A DNA stretch of 64,000 bases from Patescibacteria group bacterium (lineage in GTDB: Bacteria > Patescibacteriota > Patescibacteriia > UBA1558 > GWA2-36-10). The translations under genes and the position numbers were made by a program. The stretch spans positions 83,108 to 147,107 of the forward strand of contig JBAYIR010000001.1 of assembly GCA_041665505.1 (NCBI GenBank), in the 5' to 3' direction. The notes beneath the pieces were generated by a model. It was not told where the DNA came from and did no database searches. It saw nothing but the letters and a program-made list of their open reading frames with translations. Shown piece by piece: positions 1,241 through 58,946 of the stretch; position 1 is the stretch's first letter; each line of letters begins with the position of its first letter.

Positions 1241-1269
1241 ATTATATTATGATTATTTTTAGCTGTCAA
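1241..1269 (-). promoter_or_regulatory. perfect consensus sigma70 promoter TTGACA-17-TATAAT (minus strand)
   Basis: Plus strand attata at 1241-1246 and tgtcaa at 1264-1269, exactly 17 nt apart; counted base by base. Confidence 0.6.
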
Positions 1270-10797: not shown

Positions 10798-11991
10798 TCA
10801 GTCTCCGTTGACCTCACCAATGATCCGGCGATGGTCACTGGTCTGAGCGACCAGTTTTCCGGCGACGATTGATATCGCCACCAGATCTCCCAGGAGAGTC
10901 ATGTCGAGCAGCTCCTGTGAGCCGTCCCGTCGCAGGAGTACCAGTCGGCTAGCCGACTGAACTCTGATCTCCCGGTACTGACCGGGCTCAGGGGCTATCT
11001 CAGCTACCGGCAGCGTCGGCTCTTGGTCGACGACCGGGGGCCAGATCTGCTGGTTGAGATCGACCGGGGGCCAGATCTGCTGGTCGACATCGACCGGGTC
11101 GATGTCCTGCCGAAGTCGGATTTCTCCGCCCTCGGAAGTGGTGGTTCGCGTACCAACTCGGACGTCGTTGCCACACCTCATCAGTGTGAGCGACGACGTG
11201 CCATCGGAAAGATAGCACCGCCAGGCCGGTTGCCAGTCGGGAATGTTCTTCTGCTGGCTTAGACCGCCAGCATAGCTCACCACCATGGGTCCACGTACGT
11301 CGACGGCCTCAATCCGGTCGATGCTCACTTGGCCGGGGAGCTTGGTTGATTCAGCGACCGTCATTGCGTTGCGCTCTACCTCGTACTGCCGAGCGAAGTG
11401 CTCAGCCGCTGTTTGGGCGGTTAGGATGCCGCCTGGCGCCTGATCTGGCCCCGAGTAGGGGTCAGCCATCTGTCGGAGGTAGCCTTCTTCGATCTCGTTT
11501 TGTCGACGATTGTCTTCCGCATCAGCATGCTGGGCCCTCTGGATGCCTTTACCTAGCAGGTAGGCCAGCGTAAACACCGCCATGATGACCGTGATGGCCA
11601 TCATCCAGCGTACCAAGGCGGGTGCCGTGGATCTTTCGGCCTGAGTCGTCGGCAGAGGAGATACAGTGGTGTCGGCCGGAATGGTCGGCACCATAGCATC
11701 GAGGCTAGCTCTTCGGAATTCGAAGAGGCGAACCAATGATGCTGGGATGATCAGCTTGTCACCAGGAATAATCATGTCCGGATCCGCCAGTTGCGGATTG
11801 GACTTGACCAACTCGGCCCACAAGCTCTTCTCTCCGAACGCCACTTGCCACTGACCGAGACGGTCAGCATCATCAACGATATACTCGCCGGATCCGTCGG
11901 CGAGCTTGTAAAGCCCACCTTCCGGAACCTGAGCACCGCAGATGCTGACGATGGTCAGTAGTAGCATGGCGCAGGACAGAATCCGTAGCAT
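10798..11991 (-). CDS. high-GC secreted/membrane protein: signal peptide, LysM-like motif, TM helix, C-terminal domain with tandem QQIWPPV repeat (foreign cassette A1)
   Basis: Start likely ATG 11991 (GGAGG at 12003..11999, 7-nt spacer), giving 398 aa, rather than the track start 12078. MLRILSCAMLLLTIVSICGAQ signal peptide; WAELVKSNPQLADPDMIIPGDKLIIP resembles LysM C-terminal half; hydrophobic LVRWMMAITVIMAVFTLAYLL. GC far above neighbours. Confidence 0.55.
   Translation of the reverse strand: MLRILSCAMLLLTIVSICGAQVPEGGLYKLADGSGEYIVDDADRLGQWQVAFGEKSLWAELVKSNPQLADPDMIIPGDKLIIPASLVRLFEFRRASLDAMVPTIPADTTVSPLPTTQAERSTAPALVRWMMAITVIMAVFTLAYLLGKGIQRAQHADAEDNRRQNEIEEGYLRQMADPYSGPDQAPGGILTAQTAAEHFARQYEVERNAMTVAESTKLPGQVSIDRIEAVDVRGPMVVSYAGGLSQQKNIPDWQPAWRCYLSDGTSSLTLMRCGNDVRVGTRTTTSEGGEIRLRQDIDPVDVDQQIWPPVDLNQQIWPPVVDQEPTLPVAEIAPEPGQYREIRVQSASRLVLLRRDGSQELLDMTLLGDLVAISIVAGKLVAQTSDHRRIIGEVNGD
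11039..11098. repeat. perfect-ish 30-bp tandem direct repeat inside cassette A1 (ggccagatctgctggt[t/c]ga[g/c]atcgaccggg x2)
   Basis: Seen directly; encodes VDVDQQIWPP / VDLNQQIWPP on minus strand. Confidence 0.7.
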
Positions 11992-12143
11992 AATGCTACC
12001 TCCAAAATGAATAGGGGAAACTTCAGTTACAGGGATCTGTAACCGGGAAGATTGAAATGTTTTTCGCTCTTCCCCCAAATACCCTATAGATACTTGGGGT
12101 AAAAGCGAATATTAACTTATAAATTGGCACTATACAATATATA

Positions 12144-12302: not shown

Positions 12303-13037
12303 ATGTTGTTTAACAAGAACACTTCCAAGAAGCTTGCTCAGGGTTTTCTGATTCTGATCGGGTCGTTGTTGATTCTGGCTGTCGTCATCGCCTTGGTCGG
12401 CGAGGCCAAGGCTGGTCCGATTCCGCGCTGGGATCACAACAGTGACATTGGTATCTGGAACGAGAGCACCCACCCGCCGCGGGCAGAGGTCAGACTCAAC
12501 CTGATCAACGCCCAATCCACTGGTGTGGAATCTCGTCTCCAAGGCGTCTGCTACGACCTCCTGGAGAAGAAGGACAAACCCTACTACCTGTACTTGGGCT
12601 TCGGCTTCCAGAGCGGACACCTGGACATCGAACCGGCTCTTGGCTGGTCCTTTCGCGACAATGAGTGGGTGGCGGCCTTTCGCACTTATCCCGAGTGGGA
12701 GAAGTGGCGGGGCTACTCCAACTGCGAGTATCAACTCGAGACCAAGAGCTGGTACTATTTGGCTCAAATCGAAACCCACTTCAACCACTGGGTAGAGTGT
12801 GGTGCCGAGATGGAGGGTTGGGGCGACATCGACGACCAGTTGACCAGCAATGGTGCTGGTATCAATGTTGTTTTCAACACCCATCCGCGGTGGGGCAATC
12901 CGGACTCAAAACTCCGGATAGAAGCTGGCCTTCAGCTCCGAGAGATGGACTCGAAGTACAAACCGCAGCTCATCGTTCGATTCATATTTAGCCCGGAGAT
13001 GGAGGAGCACACGCCAGATCCTAGGAGGTGGAGATGA
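12303..13037 (+). CDS. high-GC hypothetical protein, N-terminal TM/signal anchor, Trp/Gly/Tyr-rich beta-type domain (foreign cassette A2)
   Basis: 244 aa; LAQGFLILIGSLLILAVVIALVG hydrophobic N-terminus; strong SD; first ~10 codons AT-richer than remainder; no family recognised. Confidence 0.55.
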   Translation: MLFNKNTSKKLAQGFLILIGSLLILAVVIALVGEAKAGPIPRWDHNSDIGIWNESTHPPRAEVRLNLINAQSTGVESRLQGVCYDLLEKKDKPYYLYLGFGFQSGHLDIEPALGWSFRDNEWVAAFRTYPEWEKWRGYSNCEYQLETKSWYYLAQIETHFNHWVECGAEMEGWGDIDDQLTSNGAGINVVFNTHPRWGNPDSKLRIEAGLQLREMDSKYKPQLIVRFIFSPEMEEHTPDPRRWR

Positions 13038-21698: not shown

Positions 21699-22964
21699 AT
21701 GAAAAAAATATTACATATTATTTTAAGATTATTAGCTAAAGCCGTAGTTGATAAATATCAACCCAAGGTGATTGCTATTACTGGCTCGGTGGGTAAAACT
21801 TCAGCTAAAGAGGCTATTTTTGTAGTTTTAAAGGATAAATTTAATACTAGGGCTCCTAGCAAGAATTTTAATAATGAAATCGGCACACCTTTGACTATTT
21901 TAGGTCGCCAAAACTCACCAGGTAAAAATATTTTAGCTTGGCTTTGGATATTTATTTTGGCTATAAAATTATTGATTATTAAAGATAAAAATTATCCTCA
22001 AGTATTGGTTCTAGAGATGGGGGCTGATAAAGTAGGGGATATAAAATATTTGACCTCTATTGCTCGTCCACAAATTGGCCTTATTACTGCTATTGGCACT
22101 AGCCATCTAGAATTTTTTAAAACAATAGAAAATATTGTCAAAGAAAAAAGTTCTATATTGGATAGATTGCATAAAGATGAATTGGCAGTTTTAAATAATG
22201 ATGATGTCAATTTAGAAAAAGTAATAGCCAATTGTCAAAGCAAAGTTTTGACTTATGGCCGAAAAGAAAATTCTAATATTAGAATTTCAGATATCAATAT
22301 TGTTAAAAAAGAGGATGCTTATGGTACAAATTTTAAATTGACTTATCAGGGAGCAGAAGTGCCAATGTTTTTGCCTTATGTCTTGGGCTGGCAGCATACT
22401 TACGCCGCTGCTAGCGCAGTAGCAATAGCTTTGTCTATGGGCATGAATTTGGTAGAAATTGGTCAAAGATTATTGGATTATCGGCCAGCCCGTGGCAGGA
22501 CCAATCTTATCAAAGGAATAAAAGATACTTGGATAATTGATGATTCTTACAATGCCTCTCCACAGTCTGCTAAAGCAGCTTTGGATCTTTTGGTAGCTAT
22601 GCCTATAGCTGGCAGGAAAATAGCAGTCTTAGGTGATATGCTGGAGCTAGGCTCTTTAAGTGTTGAAGCTCATCAAGAAGTGGGTAGAGAATTAGTAAAG
22701 TTGGGTGTTGATTATTTGTTTGTAGTGGGAGAGAGATCATGTGATATTGCTAGAGGAGCTAGGACAGCTGGTATGGATGAAGATAATATTTATCATTTTG
22801 CTTTTACTACTGAAGCTGGTTTATTTTTGCAAGAACGTCTTAAGGAAAATGATGTCATACTAGTTAAAGGTTCTCGGGGAGCTAAGATGGAGCAAATTGT
22901 TTATGAGATAATGGCTAAACCATGGTCAGCCAAGGATTTATTAGTCGGACAAATAGTCAAATAG
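21699..22964 (+). CDS. murF: UDP-N-acetylmuramoyl-tripeptide--D-alanyl-D-alanine ligase
   Basis: 421 aa; Mur ligase P-loop ITGSVGKTS; dcw position after ftsI. Confidence 0.7.
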   Translation: MKKILHIILRLLAKAVVDKYQPKVIAITGSVGKTSAKEAIFVVLKDKFNTRAPSKNFNNEIGTPLTILGRQNSPGKNILAWLWIFILAIKLLIIKDKNYPQVLVLEMGADKVGDIKYLTSIARPQIGLITAIGTSHLEFFKTIENIVKEKSSILDRLHKDELAVLNNDDVNLEKVIANCQSKVLTYGRKENSNIRISDINIVKKEDAYGTNFKLTYQGAEVPMFLPYVLGWQHTYAAASAVAIALSMGMNLVEIGQRLLDYRPARGRTNLIKGIKDTWIIDDSYNASPQSAKAALDLLVAMPIAGRKIAVLGDMLELGSLSVEAHQEVGRELVKLGVDYLFVVGERSCDIARGARTAGMDEDNIYHFAFTTEAGLFLQERLKENDVILVKGSRGAKMEQIVYEIMAKPWSAKDLLVGQIVK

Positions 22965-23075
22965 CTTGACTATAGTTTAAATATTTGTTAGAAATATATC
23001 TGTTTTATAGTCCCATACCGTTATTAGGCGGATGGGAGTTTAATAATTATGTTGTTAATATTTATAATATTTTAT

Positions 23076-23150
23076 GGCCCCATCGTCTAACGGTTAGGAC
23101 GTCAGGTTCTCAACCTGGCAATCAGGGTTCGATTCCCTGTGGGGTCACCA
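23076..23150 (+). tRNA. tRNA-Glu (anticodon CTC), CCA encoded
   Basis: Cloverleaf folded by hand: acceptor GGCCCCA/TGGGGTC, D-loop AACGGTTA, anticodon loop TTCTCAA, T-loop TTCGATT. Confidence 0.75.
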
Positions 23151-23151
23151 A

Positions 23152-23228
23152 GGGCATGTAGCTCAGTTGGTTAGAGCACTACATTCACATTGTAGGGGTC
23201 GAAGGTTCGAATCCCTCCATGCCCACCA
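23152..23228 (+). tRNA. tRNA-Val (anticodon CAC), CCA encoded
   Basis: Acceptor GGGCATG/CATGCCC, anticodon stem CTACA/TGTAG with loop TTCACAT, T-loop TTCGAAT. Confidence 0.75.
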
Positions 23229-23354
23229 TTCGACTCCGTTCTGCTCTGCAGAACTTCGCTCATGGTCTGCGACCACAAAAGTAAATTAAAATATAAGGTG
23301 TCGAATGTCCTGAGCGGAGTCCTGAGTTTATCGGAGGACGAAGTCGAAGGACAT
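23226..23354 (+). ncRNA. conserved structured tRNA 3'-trailer element, copy 1 (unknown family)
   Basis: Starts at the tRNA-Val CCA with TTCGACTCCG. Shares hairpin, ACTTCGCTCA/TGAGCGRAGT long-range pair, TGGTC/GACCA stem and CATTCGACTCC/GG(A/T)GTCGAATG closing helix with copies at 28003..27891(-) and 58824..58946(+). Followed by weak hairpin plus T7. Confidence 0.5.
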
Positions 23355-23383
23355 TAAAAATCAGTTTTATTTAAGGACTGTTT

Positions 23384-23430
23384 TTTTGTTGAAAAAAGAA
23401 GGCCGCCGCCACGTCAGACGTGGCGGCGGC
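23384..23430 (-). terminator. GC-rich palindromic terminator of cassette B1
   Basis: gccgccgccacg-tcaga-cgtggcggcggc 12-bp stem; A-run on plus (T-run on minus) at 23391-23397. Confidence 0.6.
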
Positions 23431-23445
23431 ATGAAGCGATATGAC

Positions 23446-24111
23446 CTAGCCGAGGTCGGCTTGGTCGAGGAGGCTCTTCTCGTATCTCTCGGCCACTTCG
23501 AGCTGATGCATCAGCCCATCGATGGCCATCTGGATGAGGTCTTCCCGGCAGGTCGGGACAGCTACAAAGCGTCTAGCCGCTTTGTCAGTTGGGAACATCA
23601 CAACCATCCACCAGCCTGCGGTAATTCCGCCGATTCCTTTGACCTTGCTACCGTAGGTGGTTGCCTTACCATCGACGATATCGTCGGGATTCTCCAAGCC
23701 GTAGCCATGGAAGCAGCGATAGTCGGGACCATGACGCTTGAATCGCAGGACCGCCACGACGGGTATTCTCACGTATTGATGGTACGTGGCAGCAGAGCAG
23801 CTGGTCGCCCTGACGATCTCGTTGTAGAACCCATCTTTGCGCTGAATTCTGATCAGCTGGTCAGAGAGGTCTCCCAGGACCGTCTTGATCTCCGAGCTGT
23901 CTGCAATCGGCCGTGCTATGACCGTGGTGGCCTGGGGGTTGACCTTGATGTCCAGCAGTGCAAAGCCGGCTTTTGCCAAGCTGATGGGGGACTCCGGATC
24001 GAGGGTGCCAGTAGCTACATCGTCTCTACCGATTCCCCAACGAAAACAATGATTGCCGTCGAGCCGTACCACACCAGTGGTGTAGATGGGGTCACAATTT
24101 TGTGCCTGCAT
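23446..24111 (-). CDS. high-GC hypothetical cytoplasmic protein (foreign cassette B1)
   Basis: Preferred start ATG 24111 with GGAGG(24123..24119)-7 nt-ATG, giving 221 aa; track start 24147 lacks SD. Natural-looking composition, unlike the plus-strand antisense ORF 23386..24153. No family recognised. Confidence 0.5.
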   Translation of the reverse strand: MQAQNCDPIYTTGVVRLDGNHCFRWGIGRDDVATGTLDPESPISLAKAGFALLDIKVNPQATTVIARPIADSSEIKTVLGDLSDQLIRIQRKDGFYNEIVRATSCSAATYHQYVRIPVVAVLRFKRHGPDYRCFHGYGLENPDDIVDGKATTYGSKVKGIGGITAGWWMVVMFPTDKAARRFVAVPTCREDLIQMAIDGLMHQLEVAERYEKSLLDQADLG

Positions 24112-24193
24112 TGGGAATCCTCCAGATTTAGTTGCATTTGTCTGCATTTATGATGCCTGCTGGCACCATTGTTCCTAGAGTTAGGAACAAAGT

Positions 24194-24222
24194 ATTATAC
24201 TATTATTTATTTTTTTTGTCAA
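24194..24222 (-). promoter_or_regulatory. perfect consensus sigma70 promoter TTGACA-17-TATAAT driving B1 (minus)
   Basis: plus attata 24194-24199, tgtcaa 24217-24222, 17-nt spacer counted. 5' UTR begins with 7-bp hairpin gttccta-actc-taggaac. Confidence 0.6.
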
Positions 24223-24235
24223 TGGTTGTTATATT

Positions 24236-24278
24236 TAAAGAAAATTAAGACCGCCGCGCATCCAGGGACGCGCGGCGG
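24236..24278 (-). terminator. GC-rich hairpin terminator of cassette B2
   Basis: ccgccgcgc-atccagggac-gcgcggcgg 9-bp stem, A/T-rich tract on minus side after hairpin. Confidence 0.55.
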
Positions 24279-24290
24279 CTACGGAGGATA

Positions 24291-24791
24291 CTACGGAAGT
24301 ATCTTCCAGACGGTAGGATTTCTTTTCCGGAAACTCTTGATGCTCTGCTCTCGGTGCATATTTTTGGCCAACACTACGGCCAAGATCAGAAGCATCAGAG
24401 CCATGAGGCTCTTGAACAGAGCCAAAATCCCTTGACCTAAAGGAGCGTGGATGGTGTGGACGGACATCGTCGCAACCAGTTTGTCTCCTTTGGTCTCGTA
24501 GACCATGAACTGGTACTGACCGAAGACGATCAGTGCTTCTTCGCCACTTTTGATGGTGGCGAGGTGCCGGCTGTTCTTGATGACCTTGAAGTAACACTCC
24601 TTGGAGTCGATGGTGACCAGCGCATGTTCGCTAATCTTGAAATCGACACTGTCGCCGTCCCGAAGGACAGCTCCAGTCACAGGAATCCGGTCATTCTCCG
24701 AACGAATATGGAGCTCGATAGCTCCTTCGCTCGCACGGACGACGGTGGTGGCACAGATCAGAATGGCGATGGTCAGAAGAAGAGTCTTCAT
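24291..24791 (-). CDS. high-GC secreted protein with N-terminal signal peptide and C-terminal TM anchor (foreign cassette B2)
   Basis: 166 aa; MKTLLLTIAILICATTVVRASEG signal peptide; C-terminal LMALMLLILAVVLA hydrophobic helix; AAAGGA SD 8 nt before ATG. Confidence 0.5.
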   Translation of the reverse strand: MKTLLLTIAILICATTVVRASEGAIELHIRSENDRIPVTGAVLRDGDSVDFKISEHALVTIDSKECYFKVIKNSRHLATIKSGEEALIVFGQYQFMVYETKGDKLVATMSVHTIHAPLGQGILALFKSLMALMLLILAVVLAKNMHREQSIKSFRKRNPTVWKILP

Positions 24792-24894
24792 GTCGCGAGT
24801 CCTTTCGCTTGCAGTTTCAGGTTCCTTCCCTCTTTATTTTAAAGGCTTTTGAGCCTTTTGTGACGTCAATGAGCTTGCTTTAAGCAATTATCTA

Positions 24895-24923
24895 ATTATA
24901 GCACTTTTTATCTTTTTTGTCAA
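24895..24923 (-). promoter_or_regulatory. perfect consensus sigma70 promoter TTGACA-17-TATAAT driving B2 (minus)
   Basis: plus attata 24895-24900, tgtcaa 24918-24923; ~95-nt leader to ATG 24791. Confidence 0.6.
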
Positions 24924-25021
24924 TGTATATTATTAAAATATATAAATATGTTTGAAAGCGCCATTATAGTTGACAATATTGATTATTTTTGTTAATATTT
25001 ACCCTGTTAAATAAAGAAAAT

Positions 25022-25336
25022 ATGAAAGCAGTTATAAAAACAGGTGGAAAACAATATCAAGTCGTCAAAGGTGATATTATTAAGATTGAAAAATTACCAA
25101 AGACTGAAGAAGGACAAAAGGTAATTTTTGATACAGTTTTACTTTTAGTAGATAAAGATAAAGCAACTTTGGGTAATCCGACTGTGGCTAAGGCCAAAGT
25201 GGAAGCTACTTTATTGCGTAATTTTAAAACCAAAAAAGTAGATGTCTTTAAATATAAAAATAAGACTAGATACAGAAAAAATTATGGTCATCGTCAACAG
25301 TTAGCTGAAGTAAAGATTGATAACATTGTTGCCTAA
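25022..25336 (+). CDS. rplU: 50S ribosomal protein L21
   Basis: MKAVIKTGGKQYQVVKGD start; the track ORF 24989 starts 11 codons earlier but the conserved L21 N-terminus begins at 25022. Confidence 0.85.
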   Translation: MKAVIKTGGKQYQVVKGDIIKIEKLPKTEEGQKVIFDTVLLLVDKDKATLGNPTVAKAKVEATLLRNFKTKKVDVFKYKNKTRYRKNYGHRQQLAEVKIDNIVA

Positions 25337-33890: not shown

Positions 33891-34613
33891 ATGACTCGCA
33901 AGCCCGTGATTCAAACAGCTCTCGAAAGCCTTGACCGTCAGATTGATGACAGAGTGGTCATCGACATTGACGGCGATGTGGATGAGGCCCAGCACATGCT
34001 TTACGCGTTTCGCACTTCGGTGGAAGAGGTGATCTTCGAAGGAGACAACACCGAAGAGTGTCGTCGGCAGTGCCTGGCCAACCTGACCAAGGTCGGCTAC
34101 CTGGAAGAGGCCATCAAGGAGTTGATGACTTTCTCCAAGCGGAGTCGGCGAGCGGTTCGTCGGTGGCTCTATGGGGAAGTTGTTCCTCAGCGAGTTGATT
34201 GGCTGCGGTGGCAGTACTGGCTTCGCGCCAAGGGGTACTACACGCGCGAGCTTGACCACATGCCCAACAGCTTCTTCCAGTTGCGCAAGCACATCCTCTG
34301 TGGCGATATCAGCTTCGCGGTTGCCGCCAAGGAGCTTGGTTGCACTCAGAAGGTTCTTCGGGGCATTCTGAACAATGAGGTGGACAGAGCTGTGATCATC
34401 AGTATCATCGGCAATGTCCACCATCTGGTGGCCAAGATCAACCGGCAGATCAGCCATCGGGAGATTGTCGGTTACATGGAGGTCTATTTGGATTCCGACG
34501 GCGAGTTTGCCGAAGTGAATCGGCGCTACAACCTGGACAACCAGAAGCGTCGTCGTAAGGTGGCTCACAAAGCTGCCAAGGCTCGCCGCAAGGCCAGGTC
34601 TTCCAAGAGCTAG
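33891..34613 (+). CDS. high-GC hypothetical protein with strongly basic C-terminal tail (foreign cassette C)
   Basis: 240 aa; GGAGG 9 nt upstream of ATG; C-terminus KRRRKVAHKAAKARRKARSSKS suggests nucleic-acid binding; TTGACA at 33767 with weak TAAAAA -10 at 17 nt; GC-rich hairpin 34638-34670 downstream. Opposite-strand ORF 33828..34568 judged antisense artefact. Confidence 0.5.
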   Translation: MTRKPVIQTALESLDRQIDDRVVIDIDGDVDEAQHMLYAFRTSVEEVIFEGDNTEECRRQCLANLTKVGYLEEAIKELMTFSKRSRRAVRRWLYGEVVPQRVDWLRWQYWLRAKGYYTRELDHMPNSFFQLRKHILCGDISFAVAAKELGCTQKVLRGILNNEVDRAVIISIIGNVHHLVAKINRQISHREIVGYMEVYLDSDGEFAEVNRRYNLDNQKRRRKVAHKAAKARRKARSSKS

Positions 34614-38940: not shown

Positions 38941-38975
38941 TTTTGGCCGCCGCGTCTGACGCGGCGGTTTTTGTT
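38941..38975 (+). terminator. GC-rich hairpin terminator after ABC exporter
   Basis: gccgccgcg-tctga-cgcggcggt followed by ttttgttt. Confidence 0.55.
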
Positions 38976-58826: not shown

Positions 58827-58946
58827 TTCGACTCCGTCCCGCTAAAGCGGGACTTCGCTCATGGTCTTCATCCTCACCGCCATAGGCGGTTCGGATTGCG
58901 ACCACTTTTCTAGGAGTCGAATGCCCTGAGCGAAGTCGAGGGGCAT
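58824..58946 (+). ncRNA. conserved structured tRNA 3'-trailer element, copy 3 (divergent, with compensatory stem changes)
   Basis: TTCGACTCCG then hairpin gtcccgc-taaa-gcgggac (vs gttctgc-tc-gcagaac in copies 1/2), conserved ACTTCGCTCA...TGAGCGAAGT pair, TGGTC/GACCA stem carrying an inserted ccgcc-ata-ggcgg hairpin, perfect 11-bp closing helix CATTCGACTCC/GGAGTCGAATG. Confidence 0.5.

Follow-up and report, generated by a model that had tools for sequence, protein, structure and literature searches.

Where does a short stretch of unusual base composition beside tRNA genes come from, and what keeps its composition unusual? The question is raised by Island B, a 1.65-kb GC-rich stretch at about 23250–24900 of a 64-kb stretch (the window) of contig JBAYIR010000001.1 from a Patescibacteria group bacterium. 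Measured in 300-nucleotide (nt) windows, the GC content of Island B is 0.45–0.58, and on both sides it is 0.27–0.38; the surroundings as a whole stand at about 0.33, and the genome at about 33% GC. The island consists of two minus-strand genes, B1 (221 amino acids, aa) and B2 (166 aa), located between tRNA-Glu/tRNA-Val and rplU. Atypical composition beside a tRNA gene is a textbook sign of recent horizontal transfer, and the first-pass annotation of this DNA read the island as a recent foreign insertion at the tRNA genes. The analysis described here leads to another answer. Island B is probably an old, locus-fixed, recombining hypervariable two-gene module, the GC-richness of which is actively maintained.

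Relatives were collected by a recR-anchored scan of GTDB species genomes, which returned about 35, labelled Candidatus Komeilibacteria or Parcubacteria; relatives, the sister strains L003–L005 included, are given L numbers. The order dnaB-ybaB-recR-rplU-variable module-tRNA-Glu-murF-pbp is conserved in these genomes, and a GC-rich stretch begins roughly 200 nt from rplU in most of them. When these loci were searched iteratively with profiles, 18 open reading frames (ORFs) fell into the B1 family and 13, all at the rplU locus, into the B2 family. B1 adjoins rplU in 23 of the 23 genome groups in which it was located (4 sister strains, 14 GTDB species and 5 further metagenomic lineages). Five further B1 clusters were looked up and each proved to be rplU-linked; all B1 clusters whose context was read are chromosomal and linked to rplU. 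The close homologues of both genes come from sister contigs, where all of them neighbor rplU and have equally high GC. tRNA-Glu marks the same boundary in every one of the 20 relatives scanned, tRNA-Val is found in some only, and L014, L017 and L023 have the two units in the opposite order. The first-pass annotation had suggested a search for an empty site between tRNA-Val and rplU; none was seen in the loci of about 30 relatives. With GC-rich B1 and B2 homologues beside rplU throughout the clade, the recent insertion that it proposed is very hard to sustain. The annotation had stated that its reading would fall if related CPR genomes had these two genes, at similar GC, in this place, and such genomes are what the comparison found.

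The gene-level layout in that annotation fared better. It had described two independently promoted and terminated high-GC genes, with the rplU promoter adjacent to that of B2 on the other strand, and the locus indeed contains two promoters that match the consensus at 12 of 12 positions, two 13-base-pair (bp) hairpins, and 46 nt between the B2 −35 box and the rplU promoter (Table 1). The mechanical ORF of B1 extends to 24147, upstream of the ATG that follows a conserved GGAGG; counted from that ATG, B1 has the 221 aa that the annotation gave it. Codon alignments of B1 and B2 with three sister strains revealed differences concentrated at third positions. The ratio of nonsynonymous to synonymous divergence (dN/dS) is 0.26–0.46 for B1 and 0.27–0.45 for B2, and 0.02–0.10 for dnaB, ybaB, recR and rplU. 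B1 and B2 are protein-coding genes of the minus strand. The 255-aa ORF on the opposite strand, which the annotation had set aside as a product of high GC, is an artefact, because its counterparts in L003–L005 span only 71–187 aa and are thus broken, and because the signal of selection (the third-position excess) lies in the B1 frame. A search of the whole window for structured RNA with Rfam at the gathering threshold returned only tRNAs and chance matches, and so did a search at E values up to 1 over positions 22900–25100.

The two genes diverge rapidly, and their divergence is mosaic. Between this genome and L003, the DnaB, YbaB, RecR and L21 proteins are 96–99% identical, B2 is 85% identical, and B1 is 60% identical. 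The corresponding synonymous divergence (dS) is 0.13–0.34 for the flanking genes, 0.36 for B2 and 1.02 for B1. L004 and L005 have identical B2 genes and B1 proteins that are 58% identical. In sliding windows the nearest partner of L003 is L005 at the start of B1 and L004 in its middle and end, and the strains group differently in B2 and in B1. Across the clade, B1 identity drops to 19–30% once RecR identity is below about 93%; in genome pairs with 93% identical RecR, the B1 proteins are merely 19–28% identical. No distant genomes with similar B1 were found, and therefore no recent long-range transfer is seen. In its fixed location among core genes, and with mosaic alleles that are far more diverged than their flanks, the locus behaves like a hypervariable island.

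The regulatory DNA was then compared with the coding sequences that it serves. The window contains five perfect TTGACA-17-TATAAT sites (0.00 expected from shuffles), three of which drive GC-rich genes. A promoter matching 11–12 of the 12 positions lies upstream of 19 of 20 B1 homologues examined, a promoter with at least 10 matches precedes 16 of 16 B2-slot genes examined, and most copies of B1 and B2 carry a hairpin terminator of their own. Since promoters and terminators are kept across copies, the design of two autonomous units is itself conserved. The B1 promoter is kept in L003–L005 and the rplU promoter in relatives. The B1 terminator is nearly invariant in L003, L004 and L005, and in L004 the B2 terminator has been swapped for a hairpin of the B1 type. 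Among four strains, promoter-plus-leader stretches and terminators are 79–100% identical, mostly at least 90% (B1 proteins, 58–79%). Relative to L003, the regulatory stretches are at least as conserved as flanking synonymous sites (proportion of differences 0.12–0.28).

The B1 leader carries a palindrome, TTGTTCCTA-N4-TAGGAACAA, at 24169–24190, which overlaps the expected start of transcription, and the leader RNA folds with a z score of −3.8. The arms of the palindrome are constant among strains and its 4-nt centre is variable. Comparison of the window with ENA assembly ERZ27249449 of the same contig, made from the same sample, gave three differences (24179, 24181 and 26508), and the first two of these fall within the 4-nt centre, which may hint at alleles that coexist in one population. 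At all other positions the window is the reverse complement of that 350-kb contig, from a Patescibacteria metagenome-assembled genome (NCBI locus tags WCV71_). The B2 leader is 97–99% identical in four strains whose coding sequences differ by 13–35%; its variable positions are hairpin loops and its fold energy is unexceptional (z = −1.1). Judged by their promoters, B1 and B2 are probably highly expressed. A hairpin in the style of the B1 and B2 terminators (GCCGCCGC...GCGGCGG, 38946–38967, plus strand) stands in an ordinary AT-rich context, which argues that this terminator style is native to the genome. The fifth perfect promoter of the window (1241–1269, minus strand) has no convincing downstream ORF and may drive a non-coding RNA.

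GC-richness accompanies the two families wherever they occur. GC at third codon positions (GC3) is 0.68 for B1 and 0.67 for B2 in the window, where native genes have 0.20–0.27. In 18 of 18 genomes the GC3 of B1 (0.55–0.96) exceeds that of recR (0.23–0.49), with an excess of +0.16 to +0.70 and sharp, gene-sized boundaries. Codon usage is inverted in all five GC-rich genes of the window that were analyzed: compared with native genes, TTA supplies 0.01 versus 0.36 of leucine codons, AAG 0.74 versus 0.17 of lysine codons, and ATC 0.65 versus 0.12 of isoleucine codons. GC at first and second positions (GC1 and GC2) is shifted in the GC-rich genes too, as are the amino acids, with more arginine and less lysine. 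Synonymous sites are saturated even among close strains, yet no lineage lacks the GC excess. On the standard amelioration argument of Lawrence and Ochman, such an excess has to be actively maintained; an anomaly that survives complete synonymous turnover requires some force to maintain it. Three candidate forces can be named: GC-biased repair of heteroduplexes formed among highly diverged alleles, which would extend the hypothesis of biased gene conversion in bacteria (Lassalle et al. 2015, PMC4450053); selection for codon choice or for the composition of the DNA or mRNA; and repeated import from an unsampled GC-rich pool.

B1 is a cytoplasmic protein of a new family, as its part of the first-pass annotation had anticipated for its location. 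An AlphaFold2 (AF2) model (predicted local distance difference test, pLDDT, 77; predicted template modelling score, 0.79) shows a unit of five β-strands and a long helix that occurs twice. Because profiles of the N-terminal and C-terminal halves align in hhalign with a probability of 99.4% (E = 6e-22), B1 is an internal tandem duplication of a β-barrel-plus-helix domain. OB, S1 and RPA structures recur as matches in two structure libraries, all of them weak (E ≥ 1e-3, TM-score ~0.2). The modeled repeat weakly resembles OB-fold proteins (S1, cold-shock, IF1/eIF1A, RPA14/RPA32) in its five-stranded barrel with a long helix, but the structural matches are no stronger than these and B1 has no sequence similarity to the Pfam OB families. 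The conserved columns of the family alignment are glycine, leucine, phenylalanine, valine and glutamine only, and conserved residues of a catalytic type were not seen. A hydrolase-like fold, which had been raised for B1 in the first-pass annotation, finds no support in the duplicated β-barrel-plus-helix model or in this residue pattern. B1 may bind nucleic acid.

B2, in agreement with the earlier description of a secreted and C-terminally anchored protein, is predicted to start with a signal peptide, followed by ~95 aa of β-domain and then a transmembrane helix near the C-terminus, with PVWKIL as the end of a basic tail. The AF2 secondary structure (pLDDT 68) consists of a helix at residues 2–19, nine strands, and a helix at residues 118–157. 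On this model B2 would be exported and anchored in the membrane by its C-terminus, with the β-domain probably exposed at the surface; its family is previously undescribed. Many relatives have, in the slot adjacent to rplU, a different small secreted family with the motif INPSPQ and no detectable similarity to B2.

Both families are rare. A search of 5.8 billion proteins gave only four close homologues of B1 and three of B2, and profiles run exhaustively over 1.84 billion representative proteins found only 22 B1 clusters. Neither protein has a match in Pfam, NCBIfam, PHROGs or PADLOC, neither has a sequence match in the PDB (profile search of the PDB gave only a marginal prefoldin coiled coil), and tblastn against 50,697 phage records found nothing. 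JGI metagenomes held no match to an exact 25-mer of the B2 leader or to a B1 peptide pattern, and there are no paralogues of B1 or B2 within the window. B1 and B2 define two new families, one a duplicated barrel-helix protein and the other a small, anchored, secreted protein.

The reading that we favor would accommodate these observations as follows. Komeilibacteria-like Patescibacteria would hold a two-gene module at one fixed site, divergent from rplU, with tRNA-Glu and murF at its other boundary, and built of two self-contained monocistronic units that appear to be very strongly promoted. B1 would be a non-enzymatic cytoplasmic binding protein, weakly OB/S1-like and comparable to an RPA14/32-like pair in one chain, and B2 a small secreted protein tethered by its C-terminal membrane helix. 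The coding parts would evolve fast and be shuffled by homologous recombination among diverged alleles, with the near-constant promoters, leaders and terminators serving as recombination anchors. GC-richness and inverted codon usage would be long-standing traits of the families, kept by an active force, and no trace of recent import. A role at a conflict interface, such as contact with phage or with a host cell, may explain the diversification. Several points weigh against this account. L006–L009, the nearest GTDB relatives (RecR 85–88%), have no B1, and other small secreted-protein genes fill the slot; thus the module can disappear or give way to other genes, and its inheritance is not strictly vertical. 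A test for GC enrichment driven by recombination was null, in that GC3 within B1 and B2 does not follow local divergence (rho = −0.09, p = 0.68). The GC excess here is also much larger than biased gene conversion is known to produce in bacteria. Promoter strength is read from the match to the consensus only, and the conflict role is argued from the evolutionary pattern, with no match to a defence-system model.

An artefactual origin deserves little credence. High GC yields long ORFs on both strands, and one could imagine a chimera made in assembly, or a structured RNA that is rich in GC and carries chance ORFs and no genes; but the identical arrangement recurs in independent assemblies from many samples, substitutions are frame-specific with dN/dS below 0.5, protein homology can be traced to ~20% identity, and no Rfam family matches the island, so that the chance of this being the explanation is close to negligible. 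A recently acquired island peculiar to this genome is also very improbable, despite the atypical GC content and codon usage, the two adjoining tRNA genes, and the ORFan status of the genes. The same families, with an equivalent excess of GC, occupy this site throughout a clade in which RecR proteins are only 61–85% identical to one another, there is neither an integrase nor an attachment-site (att) duplication nor a relative with an empty site, and the regulatory DNA is AT-rich, native in style and conserved among strains.

Two further explanations concern the source of the GC-richness. In one, cassettes would be replaced repeatedly from an unsampled GC-rich pool (phage, plasmid or episymbiont host), with recombination in the conserved promoter and terminator bringing in new coding sequences and the GC content being that of the donor. 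Such replacement would fit the failure of B1 identity to fall steadily with RecR (as in the pairs with 93% identical RecR), the mosaic genes and swapped terminators, the different small secreted families that fill the slot in other genomes (the L008 slot gene has a promoter 80% identical over 46 nt to that of B2), and a GC3 range that is wide and uncoupled from the GC3 of neighboring recR. The exhaustive profile search, however, yielded just the 22 clusters, with every context read being chromosomal and rplU-linked; phage matches are lacking, as is any distant genome pair with similar B1; and an outside donor could recombine only if it, too, had this AT-rich promoter and terminator. We regard this explanation as unlikely, while giving it some weight. 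The other would make the genes a codon-segregated class, under selection either for the use of little-used C/G-wobble tRNAs or for mRNA resistance to AU-directed decay; in either version, certain conditions would uncouple cassette output from that of housekeeping genes. Both adjacent tRNAs, tRNA-Glu(CUC) and tRNA-Val(CAC), belong to the C/G-wobble kind, a tRNA-Glu(CUC) accompanies the locus in each of the 20 relatives scanned, codon usage is inverted in all five genes analyzed, three of the five perfect promoters drive GC-rich genes, and another GC-rich ORF follows tRNA-Tyr and tRNA-Thr. Against this, the shifts in GC1, GC2 and amino acid content suggest a pressure that acts on nucleotides rather than on codons alone, and the tRNA linkage may be plain synteny. 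We consider a codon-segregated class quite unlikely. An old, recombining module at a fixed site, with GC-richness maintained in place, is the reading that we retain.

Comparison with known systems helps to place such a module. Island B shares with tRNA-linked islands its adjacency to tRNA, atypical base composition and codon usage, and genes of unknown function. It differs from them in lacking an integrase and tRNA-derived att repeats, in that relatives show no empty site, and in its homologous content across the clade, its size of 1.65 kb, and its native-style regulatory DNA. The first-pass annotation had itself reported no integrase, attachment-site duplication or mobile-element end, and this stands: the Pfam table for ~10 kb on each side contains no integrase, recombinase, transposase or reverse transcriptase, and a repeat search gave no tRNA-derived direct repeat (attL/attR) bracketing the island. 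The only flanking repeat, the 13-mer TTGTTAATATTTA (at 23052 and 24989), was considered as an att site and rejected; it reflects the similarity of two −10 regions, one in the tRNA promoter and one in the rplU promoter, and brackets the tRNAs themselves. A transposon was discarded, as the locus has neither the enzymes nor the repeats, and so was a diversity-generating retroelement (no reverse transcriptase within ~10 kb on each side, no template-like repeat, and divergence that is gene-wide).

Replacement-type hypervariable islands (O-antigen and surface-protein loci, and those of marine bacteria) are usually AT-rich or neutral. The module is like them in its fixed site among core genes, in diverged alleles that are exchanged via conserved flanks, and in an exported product. 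It is unlike them in being tiny (two monocistronic cassettes) and GC-rich, in keeping the same families across deep divergence, and in having the genes' own promoters and terminators as anchors. Integron cassettes are likewise compact single-gene units in which order change and replacement are possible, but they are promoterless, whereas B1 and B2 each come with a 12/12 promoter and a terminator. The Pfam table for ~10 kb on each side contains no integron integrase and no shared repeat resembling a recombination site was seen, attC not having been searched with a dedicated model. Bacterial GC-biased gene conversion, like the module, couples raised GC3 with recombination; the module differs in an excess much larger than is known for that process and in showing no link between divergence and GC3 within genes. 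No description of such a module was found in the literature searched on GC-rich or hypervariable islands of Patescibacteria and Komeilibacteria.

The textbook sign of transfer is misleading at this locus, where the anomaly goes back as far as the clade itself and has outlasted full synonymous turnover. This is a caution against composition-based island calling in Patescibacteria genomes. With ~1.6 kb, clear boundaries and many alleles, Island B is a compact natural system for separating biased conversion from selection on GC. If selection keeps the GC high (by uncoupling through codons or mRNA stability), a new regulatory principle would be at work; if runaway GC-biased repair at hypervariable loci does so, the effect would exceed by a wide margin every known case of biased gene conversion in bacteria. 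B1 and B2 also appear to be very strongly promoted genes, in organisms about whose surfaces and interactions with hosts very little is known.

Table 1. Coordinates of features at Island B and elsewhere in the window; for features of relatives, positions follow the genome number.
Feature	Position	Strand	Remarks
tRNA-Glu (anticodon CTC)	23076–23150	+	ARAGORN; Rfam 61 bits; locus boundary on murF side
tRNA-Val (anticodon CAC)	23152–23228	+	ARAGORN; Rfam 70 bits
tRNA trailer element	23229–23375	+	repeated tRNA-3'-flanking sequence, outside the cassettes
Opposite-strand ORF, 255 aa	23386–24153	+	artefact of high GC, no gene
B1 intrinsic terminator	23402–23430	−	13-bp GC hairpin, then CTTCTTTTTT
B1 coding sequence, 221 aa	23446–24111	−	start is the ATG after GGAGG
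B1 leader	24112–24193	−	palindrome, second 8-bp hairpin, GGAGG ribosome-binding site
B1 promoter, TTGACA-17-TATAAT	24194–24222	−	12/12; −35 box at 24222
B2 intrinsic terminator	24250–24279	−	13-bp GC hairpin
B2 coding sequence, 166 aa	24291–24791	−	predicted signal peptide, β-domain, C-terminal transmembrane helix, basic tail
B2 leader, ~100 nt	24792–24894	−	two small hairpins and TGACGTCA palindrome
B2 promoter, TTGACA-17-TATAAT	24895–24923	−	12/12, TG extension; −35 box at 24923
rplU promoter, TTGACA-17-TAATAT	24970–24998	+	divergent from B2 promoter
rplU (ribosomal protein L21)	25022–25336	+	anchor gene of the locus; Pfam Ribosomal_L21p
Island A gene	10798–11994	−	GC-rich ORFan; GC3 of the Island A pair 0.67 and 0.71
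Island A second gene	12303–13037	+	GC-rich ORFan; divergent from the first
Island C	33891–34613	+	GC-rich ORFan, GC3 0.71; helix-turn-helix-like segment, basic tail
Fourth small GC-rich ORF, 96 aa	59124–59414	+	~55% GC
INPSPQ-family slot genes	L007 9069–9488; L009 1248–1601; L019 9111–9485; L086 7439–7807; L090 5072–5443		
GC-rich spots upstream of dnaB	L022 4951–5850; L023 4051–5900; L029 5051–6200; L030 5551–6250; L034 301–1150		

At least four further GC-rich ORFans without Pfam matches lie in the window, one with another 12/12 promoter, which makes Island B one instance of a class that is genome-wide and clade-wide. PADLOC matched neither B1 and B2 nor the other GC-rich ORFs of the window. 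It is possible, and we suggest it only tentatively, that Komeilibacteria-like genomes keep a compositionally "orthogonal" class of genes: autonomous, near-perfectly promoted, GC-rich ORFan cassettes with inverted codon usage. We are equally tentative in supposing that this class has resided at fixed slots, several of them beside tRNAs, for the whole history of the clade while its sequences turned over almost completely.

The two genes of Island A have their own promoters and GC hairpins, and the promoter at 12204 matches the consensus at 12 of 12 positions. The minus-strand gene of the pair contains a marginal LysM-like stretch and a membrane helix, and neither gene belongs to a Pfam family. 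A homologue of Island C, 50% identical, is found at the syntenic edge of L008 (RecR 88%) and has the same fast-evolving pattern. The fourth small ORF lies directly downstream of tRNA-Tyr, tRNA-Thr and a trailer-like sequence, an arrangement of tRNA, trailer and GC-rich cassette that is seen here again.

The trailer itself begins with the T-loop-like TTCGACTCC and trails three different tRNA loci. Its first 86 nt (23229–23314) recur as a 97.7% identical copy after tRNA-Lys (28000–27915, minus strand), and a diverged or partial copy follows tRNA-Thr(GGT) at about 58852–58937 (plus strand). No Rfam family matches the trailer; the copy at 23229–23375 folds into a long hairpin (z = −3.4).

Upstream of dnaB, in the vicinity of tRNA-Lys, a second hot spot of high GC is found in relatives, and one small ORF family at this spot is common to L017, L019, L022 and L023. 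Several GTDB records (L016, L017, L019, L020, L024–L026, L028, L033 and L036) are titled "uncultured Gammaproteobacteria bacterium". The records so titled have the Patescibacteria gene order and RecR proteins 69–73% identical to that of this genome, and from these sequences the Gammaproteobacteria labels look wrong.

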